A stretch of DNA of 64,000 nucleotides, from sequence record PZ445517.1; one strand, written 5' to 3'. Positions within the stretch are counted from its first letter, which is position 1. Every line of letters starts with the position of its first letter. This DNA is from a phage. The notes under the pieces were generated by a model that did no database searches, had not been told where the DNA came from, and saw only the letters and a program-made list of their open reading frames with translations. This document shows positions 26,649-46,073 of this stretch, piece after piece. Made by a program: the position numbers and the translations under genes.

Positions 26649-27011
26649 CTATATAAGCACCACACACACAGATTGAACTAATACCATTCCAAAGAACCAA
26701 ACAATATTATCAAACAATGTCTGTTTTACGTCGAAAGGACGTAAACTTACAGTAATATTATCGCCTTTTTCTATTGATGAATACATCTCTGGGGAAATAT
26801 ATTCGCTAAATCTATAACCGTCATTGAGTTCATATACAGCAATAAACGATAAACTAGATCCCTTTCCTTGAGTTCCTGTAAGGGTATTAACTACAGTAAC
26901 ATCATAATCTTTATAATGCATATAATCATTAATTGCGTAATAACCATATGCAATTACTATACATAAACAACATATCAATAAATTCAATCTTTTAATTATC
27001 AACTGTTTCAT
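26649..27011 (-). CDS. membrane protein
   Basis: 120 aa with N- and C-terminal hydrophobic helices. Confidence 0.55.
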   Translation of the reverse strand: MKQLIIKRLNLLICCLCIVIAYGYYAINDYMHYKDYDVTVVNTLTGTQGKGSSLSFIAVYELNDGYRFSEYISPEMYSSIEKGDNITVSLRPFDVKQTLFDNIVWFFGMVLVQSVCVVLI

Positions 27012-39703: not shown

Positions 39704-40285
39704 TTAAGAATTACCGCGGGCTGCATTAGCAACGGCGTAAGCGTACTGAACATTAGCGTCTTTAAACGTACCTTTAGAGGTATCTAGTTCTGCCTTAAAG
39801 CCGCCTTTAGTCATAACCTCGGCGAATTCTTTACGGAAAGCCATTGCATCAAGGCTTCTCCATGATGATTTGTGCTTGGCGAATTCAAGACCAGCGTAGT
39901 TGACAGCCTTAGCTAATTTATTATCAATAACCCATTTACCAGATTTAGGCACAAACACCGGGCCTTTCTGTTTAGAGAATAGTTTTAAATTCCAGCGACG
40001 AAGGTCACCGTCAGCTTTAACAAAAGCTGCGTCCAAGTTACTAGCAACAACATCTTGAATATGACCAAATTTAAGCCCATCAACTTCAATATTTAAATCG
40101 GTACGCCAGCGAAGTCCTTCCCAAGCGAAGGCTTTAAAGTCGGAAGCCTTTGTAGCTAAGTACCGTTCAATAGGAGCTGTTTTAGGGTCAAAGCCGTTTC
40201 CCGATCGGTAGGTCCACTCATCTTTATTAATGCCTTTGGCCTTTACTACAGAAGCTTCGGCAATAAATTCTTGATAGGTTTTCAT
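39704..40285 (-). CDS. ipIII: internal protein III
   Basis: 193 aa with MKTYQEFIAEA leader; T4 IPIII length. Confidence 0.8.
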   Translation of the reverse strand: MKTYQEFIAEASVVKAKGINKDEWTYRSGNGFDPKTAPIERYLATKASDFKAFAWEGLRWRTDLNIEVDGLKFGHIQDVVASNLDAAFVKADGDLRRWNLKLFSKQKGPVFVPKSGKWVIDNKLAKAVNYAGLEFAKHKSSWRSLDAMAFRKEFAEVMTKGGFKAELDTSKGTFKDANVQYAYAVANAARGNS

Positions 40286-40339
40286 GTGTATCCTTTAAAT
40301 GTAATTATTTTAATTAATAATTTATCTCTTCAAGTAACT

Positions 40340-40378
40340 GTGAATATACTATCACAATTCCAAGAGAAAGTAAACGGC
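40340..40378 (-). promoter_or_regulatory. T4-type early promoter
   Basis: Plus tatactatcac ... gtaaac just after the e stop. Confidence 0.45.
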
Positions 40379-40379
40379 T

Positions 40380-41348
<969 letters not shown>

Positions 41349-41367
<19 letters not shown>

Positions 41368-41711
41368 TCACTCACAAACTCTTTCATTGATTCATTTTCA
41401 ATATAAGACATGTAGCTATTATATTCTTTTAATTGTATTTTGTAATCCTTTTTTCTTTGCCAATTTATTTTAAAATTATCATAATGAAAATATAACATGG
41501 TACCAAAGAATGAAAATAATGAAATAATTTTAGTATAGTGAAGTTCACTCCAAACTTCTGTTATATTTACTGTGCCGTCGATGTTTAAAATAAGACAGTC
41601 AATTAACAATCCAAAAAGACTACCCGCAAGAGCTGCAGCCAACGCCACAGCAAAAATTAAAAATGACTCATGAAGCGAATATTTGACTTTATTTAGTTTT
41701 GGCTTTTGCAT
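41349..41711 (-). CDS. membrane protein
   Basis: 120 aa, two hydrophobic helices. Confidence 0.5.
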
Positions 41712-42106
41712 CGTGATTCCTTAACAAATTTCATAATTTCATCAAATTCATATGCAGCAAGTTTAAGCTGGTGTTCCTTTTTAATCTTTTTACACTGTGC
41801 TTTCCAATCACGTACGCGTTTACGATAATGTCTTCCTTGATACCAGTATCCTACCCAATTTACCGGTACTAATAAAAGTGGAACTACCAATGGAAGAATT
41901 AGCATTAACACAAGTATTTCGCCAGAATCAATATCAGTCATAACATCTAAAACACCTCCAATAATCAATAGAATTACAAATGATATAAGTATAACAGGAC
42001 CTATTAATACATCAGTAGAAATTATCTGACGCTTTAATTCATACTTCAAAGGTTTACTTGGAAGGTATAGTGATGGCTTTGACATATTCTCTACATTCCT
42101 TAACAA
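41693..42106 (-). CDS. membrane protein
   Basis: 137 aa, hydrophobic core. Confidence 0.5.
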   Translation of the reverse strand: MLRNVENMSKPSLYLPSKPLKYELKRQIISTDVLIGPVILISFVILLIIGGVLDVMTDIDSGEILVLMLILPLVVPLLLVPVNWVGYWYQGRHYRKRVRDWKAQCKKIKKEHQLKLAAYEFDEIMKFVKESRCKSQN

Positions 42107-42662
42107 ATTTTTCTAGTAATAAATCGCTTTCAAAACTAGGATTTTCCACTAATTTATCAAAAAGATCATCAACAATAGTTAAGATATTCTTTTTACTAAG
42201 AATACGTTTATTTTCATGCTTCGTTTCAGAATCAACTATAAGAGTAAAGAAATATTTCTTTCCCTGAAATTTTACTGTAGTATCAATATAGAATAAATTT
42301 GACTTTTGTAAGTTACGTTTAAACCATGCGTCACTTAAACTATAAACACCGAGATAATCAAAATCGTCGTTTAAATAACAAACTGTCCATTCAGGAGAAA
42401 TGAAATCAGTAAATTCAACATCAAAATCGCATGTCAATGAATAAATTGATTCAATACTGTTAATAAGTATTCCAGGACGTATTAAAGACTTTTTACCTCT
42501 GGAAAATCTTCCAGAAAGACTTTCATCAGTTTCATATGAAGAACCCCAATAATAATTACGTCCTTCTGCCATACGTTTAAGAGCATTTAGTAATTGGTCT
42601 GGAACATCAACCTGTCTTTGGAACTCTTCAAACATTGAATTGAAATCACTTTGCATTTTCAT
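42054..42662 (-). CDS. hypothetical protein
   Basis: 202 aa ORF. Confidence 0.55.
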   Translation of the reverse strand: MKMQSDFNSMFEEFQRQVDVPDQLLNALKRMAEGRNYYWGSSYETDESLSGRFSRGKKSLIRPGILINSIESIYSLTCDFDVEFTDFISPEWTVCYLNDDFDYLGVYSLSDAWFKRNLQKSNLFYIDTTVKFQGKKYFFTLIVDSETKHENKRILSKKNILTIVDDLFDKLVENPSFESDLLLEKFVKECREYVKAITIPSK

Positions 42663-42681
42663 TCCTATTTACTCCAAGTAA

Positions 42682-42697
42682 TAGGGGCCGAAGCCCC
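42682..42697 (-). terminator. UUCG-type hairpin
   Basis: aggggccgaagcccct. Confidence 0.45.
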
Positions 42698-42703
42698 TTA
42701 TCA

Positions 42704-43296
42704 TTATTTCAGAGAATTAATATATTCCTGAACATCGGCAGAGGTAGTTTCAACCCCAGAAATATTACCATTAAAGGTTTCAACTCGAGCAAGAGTATCT
42801 TCAATATCAACCTTAGTCAGTGCTGCAATTTCAACTACATCATCAGCAGTACTAATTCCAAGTGCATTCGCTGCACGAGTTTCACGGATATATTCCAATT
42901 TAACTGCAAGTTCTTGGCGAGCATCATCTAACTCAACTACTTTCTTGGCGATTTCAATTCGCATTTCAGCATAACCATCAGCTTTAGTAGTCAACTGATC
43001 AGCTGTTCGACGATATAGTAAACCAAGTTTAGCATGCATTGTTACATCTTGACCTTCAGAAAGAAGCTTGCGAATTTCACGCTCTTTTGATTCGGCCTGC
43101 TTATTCTTTTCGACAATAAGTTCACGAATACGCTTTTCTTCGTTAATAGATTTAACGGAAGCAGTTTTTAGGTCTTTAATCTTATCAAGTAGTTTTGCTG
43201 CTGCAGCAGTATACTGTTCTTCAACAGATAGATTTTAGCCATAGCAGAACCAAGTTTAGTGCGAATAAACTCAACAATTTTCTTCAGTGTGTTCAT
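42704..43296 (-). pseudogene. coiled-coil protein gene apparently split by a frameshift (frame A 43168..43296, frame B 42704..43234)
   Basis: Strong start (ATG 43294-43296, AAGGAAA SD) opens 42-codon [27 protein letters not shown]...; a second frame is open from 43234 with no ATG until 43039 and reads natural coiled-coil sequence [20 protein letters not shown].... Confidence 0.45.
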
Positions 43297-43339
43297 AGTA
43301 TTTCCTTAGGTTGATTAAGATTTAAAATCCGTGAGAGTA

Positions 43340-43516
43340 TTATACTCCGGATAGTTTGTAAACTATTTCAACATCGCCTTTTGCTGCTTTATAACCTTCA
43401 GCCCAAGATATAACCGAGTTTTTATCTGAAGATTCAAATTCTGGCATTGGGCTTTCGCCAATGTTCACGCAGTATGTTTCTTCATTTTCGTCGAACCAAA
43501 TAATTAAAGTAGTCAT
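43340..43516 (-). CDS. hypothetical small protein (58 aa)
   Basis: ATG 43514-43516 with GGAGAAATAAA SD. Confidence 0.4.
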   Translation of the reverse strand: MTTLIIWFDENEETYCVNIGESPMPEFESSDKNSVISWAEGYKAAKGDVEIVYKLSGV

Positions 43517-43584
43517 TTATTTCTCCGTTTCTGTATTTGTTTTGATAAGTCTATAATAACACCGTCCTTGGTGTTTGTACACAA

Positions 43585-43848
43585 TTATTTCATATTATTG
43601 AAATATTCTTCTGCGATTTCGTCGTTATCATGGTAAACTTTAGAAGACAGTTTAACATAACCTTCAGCAGTGAACATATTAATCACAACCTTTACAGTAT
43701 ACCACTGACCATCTTCATTACCCATTACTGCGTAAGTTTCAAACATCGGATGATCAGGACCGATAACTTTAATATCATTCACTGTACGACCAAAATCTTC
43801 TGAAACACATTTCATAAAGAAGTTGAACAGTTCGCCGTAATTATCCAT
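43585..43848 (-). CDS. hypothetical protein (87 aa)
   Basis: ATG 43846-43848 with GGAG SD downstream of early promoter. Confidence 0.55.
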   Translation of the reverse strand: MDNYGELFNFFMKCVSEDFGRTVNDIKVIGPDHPMFETYAVMGNEDGQWYTVKVVINMFTAEGYVKLSSKVYHDNDEIAEEYFNNMK

Positions 43849-43887
43849 TTCATTCTCCAAGTTGTTTTTCTGTATCAGTAGTTGATA

Positions 43888-43925
43888 GTTGTATAGTACC
43901 ATGGAAGAATAGGGATGTAAACAGT
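43888..43925 (-). promoter_or_regulatory. T4-type early promoter
   Basis: gtagttgatagttgtatagtaccatgg ... gtaaacagttttgtgaaaaa. Confidence 0.6.
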
Positions 43926-44058
43926 TTTGTGAAAAATTTTTTAAAAAGTTTTGGGGAATTCTAGGGCAGGGAGGGCAATTAAAGGATAGGATAATATATT
44001 ATAAAGGATAGAAACTAAATGATGCCTAGAGAGGCCCGGAAAGGCCTAAATACCAAAA

Positions 44059-44082
44059 AGCCCCGACCAAAAGGTTGGGGCT
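44059..44082 (-). terminator. GC hairpin (AGCCCC...GGGGCU)
   Basis: agccccgaccaaaaggttggggct after stop of 44090.. ORF; related copy at 44615-44638. Confidence 0.45.
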
Positions 44083-44089
44083 AAGAATG

Positions 44090-44564
44090 TTATTTGATTT
44101 GTTTAGCAGACCAAATGCGGTCTTTAATAATTTTTTGGATGTCTTCAACATACTCAAGAGAGTGAGCATGTGGGTTATCTTTGAAACTATAAGCACGAGC
44201 TAGCTTTTGGCCTTCAGTTTTGATTACTAAAAGCTCTTTAAGGATAGCTTCATATTTGGAGATAATTCCTTTAACAATATTTTTTTTCTTGCGTAGCTTT
44301 AGGATCTGCTTTAGGAGCAGGTTTACCTGAAGCCTTTGCAAAAGCAGCGCCAGTAGCAACTAAACTTTTCCAGGCCATACTAACAGCATTCCCCGTAAAT
44401 CCTTCTGCTTTCATATCACGAGCAAATTGGAATCGTGATTCATCGGAAGCATCTTTATAGGAATATTTACCCGCGGCAATGGCAGCTTTTGCAACAGCTT
44501 GAATTTCAGTGCTAGATGCTTCATTTAACACCGCTTCATTTAAAAATTGAGCATATGATTTCAT
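44090..44564 (-). pseudogene. late gene apparently split at an A8 homopolymer (ORF1 44271..44564, ORF2 44090..44359)
   Basis: Minus-strand GAAAAAAAATATTGTTAA: frame 1 ends ...QEKKYC*, frame 2 continues KKKNIVKGIISKYEAIL...; removing one A fuses them into about 157 aa. Confidence 0.45.
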
Positions 44565-44600
44565 CTTATTTCCTGTTTTAATTCGTGGTTTTAATATACT

Positions 44601-44608
44601 TATTTATA
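44601..44608 (-). promoter_or_regulatory. late promoter TATAAATA (minus strand)
   Basis: Plus tatttata about 37 nt upstream of ATG 44564. Confidence 0.4.
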
Positions 44609-44614
44609 CTAAAA

Positions 44615-44638
44615 AGCCCCAACCTTTCGGCTGGGGCT
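44615..44638 (-). terminator. GC hairpin closing the tRNA/small RNA transcription unit
   Basis: agccccaacctttcggctggggct. Confidence 0.45.
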
Positions 44639-44640
44639 AA

Positions 44641-44950
44641 GCCTTGCGGCAACCTTGTCGGGGTTCCACCTGCTAAGGCAAGTGTTTGTACGAAACGCCG
44701 GGATTCGAACCCGGTTATTAAGCAGTTGACGCTACTCAATATTTTTAAAAGGCCATATCTCGACCATATCCGAACGTTCCGTCAAAAACGCTACTCGGCT
44801 TATGGCAAAGATATTTCCTCGAATCGATAATTCGGTGCGCCGTTTCTGCTGTGATATAAGGGGGCATTAGCAGATCGTAAAGATTTGTTAATGCCAGTCC
44901 TTAAACAGGGAACATCAGTCCGACGACTTGCCGGTAGCGACCCGGCTTCT
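44641..44950 (-). ncRNA. possible small stable RNA(s) downstream of tRNA-Arg (analogous to T4 RNAs C/D)
   Basis: About 300 nt without ORF between tRNA-Arg and a hairpin; contains tRNA-like T-arm CCGGGTTCGAATCCCGG and several stem-loops; T4 has species C/D RNAs here. Confidence 0.3.
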
Positions 44951-44954
44951 TGTC

Positions 44955-45030
44955 TGGTCGAGGCAGTAGGGATCGAACCTACGACCCAGGACTTAGAAGG
45001 TCCTTGCTCTTCCTTCTGAGCTATGCCTCG
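44955..45030 (-). tRNA. tRNA-Arg (anticodon UCU)
   Basis: Hand-folded cloverleaf: acceptor CGAGGCA/TGCCTCG, anticodon loop CTTCTAA, T-arm GTAGG-TTCGATC-CCTAC, encoded CCA. Confidence 0.8.
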
Positions 45031-45034
45031 GATT

Positions 45035-45109
45035 TGGCGGACGTGATAGGATTCGAACCTATAACCAATCGCTTAACAGGCGATCGCTCTGCCATTGAGC
45101 TACACATCC
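45035..45109 (-). tRNA. tRNA-Asn (anticodon GUU)
   Basis: Acceptor GGATGTG/CACGTCC, anticodon loop CTGTTAA, T-arm ATAGG-TTCGAAT-CCTAT, CCA encoded. Confidence 0.7.
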
Positions 45110-45113
45110 AAAT

Positions 45114-45200
45114 TGGTGGGGAGTGATGGAGTCGAACCACCCGAGTCGCAATGACAATGGATTTACAGTCCACACCGCTACCTCTACGGGATAACTCCCC
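45114..45200 (-). tRNA. tRNA-Tyr (anticodon GUA), long variable arm
   Basis: Acceptor GGGGAGT/ACTCCCC, anticodon loop CTGTAAA, 15-nt variable arm, T-arm GGTGG-TTCGACT-CCATC; D-arm not resolved by hand. Confidence 0.6.
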
Positions 45201-45209
45201 AAATTAATT

Positions 45210-45284
45210 TGGTGGCCCTGGGTGGAATTGAACCACCATCTGGCGATTATGAGTCGCTTGCTTGAACCTTCCAGCTACAGGGCC
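45210..45284 (-). tRNA. tRNA with CAU anticodon (Ile-lysidine type or Met)
   Basis: Acceptor GGCCCTG/CAGGGCC, anticodon loop CTCATAA, T-arm GGTGG-TTCAATT-CCACC, CCA encoded. Confidence 0.65.
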
Positions 45285-45293
45285 AAATTTTTC

Positions 45294-45779
45294 TTATTTT
45301 ATGTAATATTTATTTAAAAACTTTCTAGCTTGAGTATGGCTAACATTTATAGCGTTTGCATAATTTTTAATAAAACCTCGTTCATCCATATTAAAATTTT
45401 CTAATATTTTTAATCGTCTAATTATCTCATCTTGGCTTAAGGTACTTGCATTATTTTTAGAAATTTTTTCTAAAGACTGCACTGAGTGTTTTCGACCATT
45501 AAAATTAAAATTTTTAGGTTTTGGAGGAAATCTATCATTTAGTCTCGCATCTTTTGTATTTTGATTATTAGTTGCGCAATATATGTTATTTAATGAGTAT
45601 GGTCCTTTATCACCAAAACGACACATACAGTATTCATGACCCTTTCTTCCACGCTTATCATAATTTCCTGTTGATTTCCACCAATTTAACCACTCATCAA
45701 AAGTTAAATTCCATTCAATGTTTCTACGTATAGCAGAATTCCGCTGAGAAATATATTTTGCATAATCTTCTTTCATCAC
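45294..45779 (-). CDS. hypothetical protein inside tRNA cluster with Cys/His-rich nuclease-like segment and C-terminal HTH (possible mobile-element endonuclease)
   Basis: 161 aa; RRNIEWNLTFDEWLNWW...GHEYCMCRFGDKGPYSLNNIYCATNNQN; C-terminal VSHTQARKFLNKY resembles the HTH tail of the HNH protein at 46172..46804. Confidence 0.5.
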   Translation of the reverse strand: MMKEDYAKYISQRNSAIRRNIEWNLTFDEWLNWWKSTGNYDKRGRKGHEYCMCRFGDKGPYSLNNIYCATNNQNTKDARLNDRFPPKPKNFNFNGRKHSVQSLEKISKNNASTLSQDEIIRRLKILENFNMDERGFIKNYANAINVSHTQARKFLNKYYIK

Positions 45780-45823
45780 AAATTTCTCTACTTATTACAT
45801 GCACTAAGCTAAATCAGCAAAAC

Positions 45824-45913
45824 TGGCGGAGGCGATAGGATTTGAACCTATGAGTCGCCGGAGCGACTGCCGGTTTTCAAGACCGGTGCATTAAACCACT
45901 CTGCCACGCCTCC
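45824..45913 (-). tRNA. tRNA-Ser (anticodon UGA), long variable arm
   Basis: Acceptor GGAGGCG/CGCCTCC, anticodon stem-loop CCGGT-CTTGAAA-ACCGG, variable-arm hairpin, T-arm ATAGG-TTCAAAT-CCTAT. Confidence 0.8.
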
Positions 45914-45915
45914 AG

Positions 45916-45989
45916 TCTCCATACAAGGATTTGAACCTTGGACCTCCTGATCCCAAATCAGGCGCTCTACCAAACTGAGCTACACGGAG
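45916..45989 (-). tRNA. tRNA-Pro (anticodon UGG), no encoded CCA; 2 nt from tRNA-Ser (dimeric precursor arrangement)
   Basis: D-arm GCTC-AGTTTGGTA-GAGC, anticodon stem-loop CCTGA-TTTGGGA-TCAGG, T-arm CAAGG-TTCAAAT-CCTTG. Confidence 0.75.
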
Positions 45990-45999
45990 TAAATTAAAT

Positions 46000-46073
<74 letters not shown>

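Follow-up and report, generated by a model that had tools for sequence, protein, structure and literature searches.

The question raised by this locus is why a coiled-coil gene of a T4-like phage occupies two overlapping reading frames, of which only the upstream one is preceded by a strong initiation site. The window, which denotes the whole 64,000-nt stretch of the sequence record PZ445517.1 that was analysed, had been read previously from its letters alone. In this original prediction, a 1-nt deletion was preferred over programmed frameshifting as the cause of the split, and the choice between a mutation and a sequencing error was left open. The analysis described below indicates that the gene e.6 of Escherichia phage T4_ev240 has very probably been inactivated by the loss of one A from a run of five A residues (A5) at codons 21/22, a real and strain-specific deletion that is likely to be recent.

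The identity of the phage and of the gene was determined by comparison with known T-even phages. A search with 801 nt around the split gene matched 503 T-even phage records, and an identity of 100% was obtained only with Escherichia phage T4_ev240 (LR597657.1). A 25-kb piece of the window is likewise 100% identical to LR597657.1, and the next relatives are at approximately 96%. In T4 (NC_000866), T2 and Yersinia phage phiD1, a single e.6 gene encoding 197 amino acids is situated at the same position. In the annotated regions of T4, T2, phiD1 and T4_ev240, it is flanked by e.5 on one side and by the e.7/e.8 ORFs on the other side, all on the same strand. The T4 e.6 protein matches phrog_1203 with E = 8e-88, and the protein encoded by the window, after one A was restored, matched 49 homologue clusters. 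The e.6/PHROG 1203 group is characterized by one ORF of approximately 197 codons, which the window copy does not have, being split by the 1-nt deletion. The e.6 of the window is a disrupted allele of the T4 e.6 orthologue group, where the split is defined by comparison with the intact orthologues and not by statistics. The features of the locus are summarized in Table 1.

Table 1. Features of the split e.6 locus, with positions in the window.
Feature	Positions	Strand	Basis and remarks
e.6 locus (orthologue of T4 e.6, NP_049742.1)	42704..43296	minus	593 nt; 594 nt in T4, T2 and phiD1
Shine-Dalgarno-like AAGGAAA	43301..43307	minus	4 nt 5' of ATG; read from sequence; same in T2 and phiD1
e.6 start ATG	43296-43294	minus	read from sequence
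5' fragment ORF, 42 codons + TAA (43170-43168)	43168..43296	minus	frame reading
A4 run, site of the 1-nt deletion	43233..43236	minus	alignment with T2 and phiD1
Native e.6 frame after the deletion, N22-K197 + TAA (42706-42704), 176 codons	42704..43234	minus	frame reading
ATG-initiated 111-aa ORF	42704..43039	minus	VUF55551.1, 'Phage host specificity protein' in LR597657.1
GC-rich terminator-like hairpin GGGGC-TTCG-GCCCC, between e.6 and e.5	42681..42701	no strand assigned	pattern scan

As shown in Table 1, the frame opened by the AAGGAAA motif and the ATG at 43294-43296 stops after 42 codons at 43168, and every coordinate given for it in the original prediction holds. Codons 1-21 of this ORF (43296-43234) are native e.6 and correspond to the helix alpha0, and codons 22-42 are out-of-frame. 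On its 5' side, the downstream frame is bounded by a TAA (43237-43235), after which it extends without interruption from 43234 to 42704; the overlap of the two frames is 67 nt, from 43234 to 43168. It had been stated that the downstream frame contains no ATG until 43039, which is correct and can be extended, as neither GTG nor TTG occurs in it 5' of this ATG. A non-ATG start of the downstream frame was considered and rejected, as only ATT codons without a Shine-Dalgarno sequence precede 43039. In LR597657.1, the 111-aa ORF is the sole annotation at e.6. The hairpin between e.6 and e.5 was listed on the plus strand by the scan; its palindromic stem is identical on the gene (minus) strand, where the T-poor tail TATTACTT follows it.

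The alignment with orthologues that had been proposed as a check locates the indel. The sequence at codons 21/22 is GCT AAA AAT in T2, phiD1 and T4, and GCT AAA AT in the window, which is the sole length difference, so that an A5 run in the continuous 594-nt orthologues is an A4 run at 43233-43236. T4 e.6 (NP_049742.1), T2 e.6 (BBC14748.1) and phiD1 g137 have the same locus, strand, Shine-Dalgarno sequence and ATG as the window copy; however, the window copy is one A short at codons 21/22 and hence is read in two frames. Relative to the intact orthologues, this is a single indel of a length that is not a multiple of 3, in an alignment that is otherwise colinear. The e.6 gene with one A restored encodes 197 aa (22.0 kDa), of which 196 are identical to those of T4 e.6. 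Residues K21 and N22 belong to the conserved N-terminal part; because of this conservation, and because N22 hardly varies among the 44 family clusters, A5 is taken as the ancestral state. Further stops are absent from the downstream frame, which differs from T4 by one substitution, and this suggests that the deletion event was recent.

The rarity of the A4 allele was determined using a 71-nt BLAST query centred on the site, which matched 500 GenBank T-even phage records. A match free of gaps and mismatches was obtained with LR597657.1 alone (1 of 500). The remaining 499 records differ from the A4 allele, all but six of them at 95-99% identity, which is consistent with an extra A, and every record inspected among the 499 has A5. 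In an exact scan, the A4 27-mer gave no match in IMG/VR and none in the JGI metagenome contigs, and the A5 28-mer was found in two IMG/VR contigs.

The consequence of the deletion depends on the protein that is disrupted. The T4-type e.6 falls in phrog_1203, which is annotated as being of unknown function; members of this group are encoded by T4-like and other phages, and the e.6 of T4 itself is to date annotated as hypothetical. Single-sequence Pfam scans of the T4-type e.6 gave no hit, and searches against PDB sequences using phmmer and hmmsearch gave no link to known families. The comparison of an alignment of close e.6 relatives with E. coli PspA using hhalign (E = 0.084) led nowhere, and the link to PspA emerged only after distant members of the e.6 family were added. 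These members were obtained from a profile search of 1.8 billion representative proteins, in which the full-length ones consist of approximately 195-205 aa encoded in one frame. Two of these members, P0066 and P0067, are aligned to the e.6 profile over their full length with E = 1.6e-21 and 7.9e-20, respectively, and reach 35.1 and 39.0 bits, respectively, against PF04012, colinear from residue 6, where the gathering cut-off is 33.9. When the widened e.6 alignment was compared with E. coli PspA using hhalign, the N-termini aligned from residue 1 with E = 6.7e-4 and a probability of 27%.

The AlphaFold2 model of e.6, built from 44 homologues with a pLDDT of 78.5, consists of an N-terminal helix (residues 3-22), three short helices at the C-terminus and, between them, a long antiparallel hairpin formed by residues 25-80 and 86-145; the coiled-coil character that had been noted in the sequence corresponds to this helical hairpin. 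In the Foldseek search of the PDB with this model, the best ten matches were all Vipp1/PspA entries, and archaeal CdvB2 came next. The predicted topology may correspond to that of the PspA/IM30/Vipp1 family (PF04012, ESCRT-III superfamily), namely alpha0, a hairpin of alpha1 and alpha2/3, and short C-terminal helices. The profile and model comparisons support the assignment of the e.6 family as a putative divergent, phage-encoded PspA/IM30-like protein of the ESCRT-III superfamily, with a homology that is transitive. The homology between e.6 and PspA is not new, as it was already proposed in 2022 in a paper on a Kuttervirus protein, where phrog_1203 was proposed as a PspA homologue by HHpred and an anti-abortive-infection role was suggested for it (PMC9409062). 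Nothing on the function of e.6 was found in the literature beyond this proposal.

On the basis of this predicted fold, the effect of the deletion can be described as follows. Ribosomes would start at the native site, read 21 native and 21 out-of-frame codons, and stop at 43168, whereas the remaining 176 native codons, which have no start, would not be translated as a part of e.6. A 111-aa C-terminal fragment, starting at the ATG at 43039, is the most that could still be produced. The frameshift would separate the N-terminal helix alpha0 from the hairpin; the 42-aa product would consist of alpha0 and 21 out-of-frame residues, and the 111-aa fragment, which contains neither alpha0 nor alpha1, would be unable to form the hairpin. 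Because alpha0 is cut from the hairpin, the e.6 allele is most likely null, that is, a pseudogene, with the proviso that the 111-aa fragment could be made. We regard the change as an ordinary mutation of a known gene with a probable loss of function, and not as a signal for recoding.

The lesion would be tolerated by the phage because e.6 is an accessory gene. From the survival of the strain, its metagenomic abundance and the general knowledge of T4 accessory regions, we infer that e.6 is dispensable, and it is regarded here as non-essential. The presence of an e.6-disrupted T4-like phage at high abundance in metagenomes supports this dispensability, at least in some settings.

Instead of being null, the allele could be adaptive if the split pieces, namely the 111-aa C-terminal protein, the 42-aa peptide or both, kept or gained a function. 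It is consistent with such a function that the 111-aa ORF starts at M87, exactly where the second hairpin helix begins, that a weak GAAGG is found 13-14 nt upstream of its ATG at 43039, and that the coverage of the strain in metagenomes was enough for a 166.9-kb scaffold. However, most family members have T in place of M87, so the internal start is not conserved, and the hairpin that the fragment cannot make without alpha0 and alpha1 is the core of the fold. In addition, half of the 42-aa peptide is out-of-frame, and a comparable split was found in no other lineage, with short family matches left out of the count. A function of the pieces is therefore unlikely. It is also improbable that the loss or splitting of this PspA-like gene is adaptive in the lineage, for example, by a changed interaction with the host. 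Possible routes may be the loss of a membrane-stabilising anti-abortive-infection factor or the freeing of the alpha0 peptide or the 111-aa fragment. If the adaptive reading were true, the strain would be a natural knock-out for testing the viral ESCRT-III/PspA homologue in T4 infection.

An inactivating mutation requires that the A4 run is present in the phage itself, and it is conceivable that the deposited record is in error and that the phage truly has A5 with an intact e.6. The indel lies in a homopolymer, A4 is found in only one of the 500 GenBank records, and a platform-specific homopolymer error common to all data sets can be imagined. However, exact gene calls of 42 aa and 111 aa were found on contigs from metagenome runs of other BioSamples. 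These products are carried by a 166,912-bp scaffold of the ENA assembly ERZ28596887 (SAMN18354265), and also by contigs of ERZ28602068 (SAMN18354281), Logan SRR14001074 and Logan SRR14000869, so that the same A4 recurs in contigs built de novo by two pipelines (ENA assemblies and Logan) from two or more other BioSamples. Compared to the window, the contigs show 100% identity and no gaps over 6,040 nt (40000-46039, site included) and over 20,363 nt (16649-37011), which amounts to 26.4 kb; they represent the same clone and thus confirm the sequence of the strain, and say nothing on the spread of the allele. The nearest GenBank relatives of the phage are only approximately 96-98% identical, compared to 100% for the metagenome contigs. 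The phage may have been added to the metagenome samples, or the clone may be widespread; literature searches on the metagenome accessions and on the origin of T4_ev240 found nothing. Sequencing and de novo assembly of this clone on more than one occasion gave A4 each time.

The quality of the record was assessed by a window-wide blastn comparison with phiD1, in which the indel coordinates were mapped onto the phiD1 CDS annotation. Two isolated frameshifting indels were found within the annotated CDS of phiD1, namely the e.6 site and an A8/A7 difference at 44280-44287, and the genes for DNA polymerase, gp46, gp47, NrdD and the baseplate are intact in the window. Because the coding indels are few and the large essential genes are intact, without scattered homopolymer frameshifts, the record is not a noisy assembly, and a low-quality assembly was rejected as the source of the split. 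Moreover, a run of A4/A5 is short for a systematic error. An error in the record is thus very improbable, and on the contig-level evidence the A4 allele is favoured as a real mutation, with a small residual doubt. This settles in favour of mutation the choice that had been left open in the original prediction, which had also named two contrary outcomes beforehand, neither of which occurred: the orthologues are not two separate genes, and the independent assemblies show no assembly indel.

The remaining alternative is recoding, in which a programmed -1 frameshift, transcriptional slippage, bypass or reinitiation yields a full-length or nearly full-length e.6 from the two frames. The strong upstream initiation site, the 67-nt overlap and the intact downstream frame are in line with such an event, and translational bypassing has a precedent in T4, where it is used by gene 60. 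The layout of the split gene resembles that of programmed -1 frameshift genes of tailed phages, such as the lambda G/GT tail chaperone, in which two overlapping frames share one strand and only the upstream frame has a strong start. Unlike these genes, the e.6 locus has no heptamer, no stimulatory structure and no conservation of the layout, and its split results from a unique indel. As had been reported for the overlap, an X-XXY-YYZ slippery heptamer is absent; none was found in any phase when 43296-43160, which covers the overlap, was scanned. With the exception of an A5 containing the stop codon, no homopolymer in the overlap exceeds A4, and polymerase slippage would need a longer run than the A4 at the site. 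The RNA folded from 96 nt around the site has a minimum free energy of -12.5 kcal/mol, compared to a shuffle mean of -13.2 (z = 0.26), and thus is no more stable than shuffled sequence and gives no stimulatory structure. Any bypass would remove conserved residues. The two-frame layout is not conserved, as T4, T2 and phiD1 have a single in-frame gene, the inspected intact orthologues and homologues consist of one gene of approximately 197 aa, and none of the other 499 records matches A4. Because the gene is in frame in the inspected relatives and A4 is unshared by the 499 records, selection for a recoding signal is impossible. Programmed frameshifting, slippage and bypass were rejected on these grounds, and recoding of any kind is extremely improbable. 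The preference for a 1-nt deletion in the original prediction is borne out by the A that is missing from A5.

The probable inactivation of e.6 by this deletion has consequences for annotation. What GenBank lists as a 111-aa 'host specificity protein' is the C-terminal part of the frameshifted e.6, and the 42-codon ORF does not represent a gene. Furthermore, independent public assemblies proved suitable for checking a homopolymer indel that looked suspicious. T4_ev240 is a natural e.6 mutant that can be used for the study of phage PspA/IM30 homologues.

The surroundings of e.6 differ from T4 in several respects. In spite of its name, T4_ev240 is not T4 in the region of 41349-44600, which was compared with 67000-71000 of NC_000866, and e.2 of T4 is absent from this region of the window. 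A 58-aa ORF at 43340-43516 is situated where T4 has the 111-aa e.7, and T2 and phiD1 have the same 58-aa arrangement. The e.4 ORF at 41693-42106 is intact and is unannotated in LR597657.1.

Two other sites of length variation were observed. A CA repeat at 26665, close to the 3' end of a 120-aa ORF (26649-27011, minus strand, Pfam Phage_T4_Y05C) and 16 nt from its stop, differs in length by 2 nt from phiD1, where the counterpart of the ORF is annotated as 135 aa; the metagenome contigs carry the CA-repeat allele of the window. The other is a second homopolymer frameshift, 1 kb away from the e.6 site, in an A8 run at 44280-44287 on the minus strand, with ORFs at 44271-44564 and 44090-44359. The A8 shortens the homologue of phiD1 g140 from 157 aa to 97 aa. 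The long form is encoded by phage e11/2 (vB_EcoM_112), with A7 at this site, and by phiD1, with AGAAAAA. A8 and a 97-aa gene call are shared by teqhal, a phage that was isolated independently, and the metagenome contigs likewise carry A8. This A tract, which lies in an accessory gene, appears to vary in length recurrently. At 44615-44638 on the minus strand, immediately upstream of the 97-aa ORF, there is a strong hairpin similar to an intrinsic terminator, with a 10-bp stem including 7 GC pairs, a GAAA loop and a T-rich tail.
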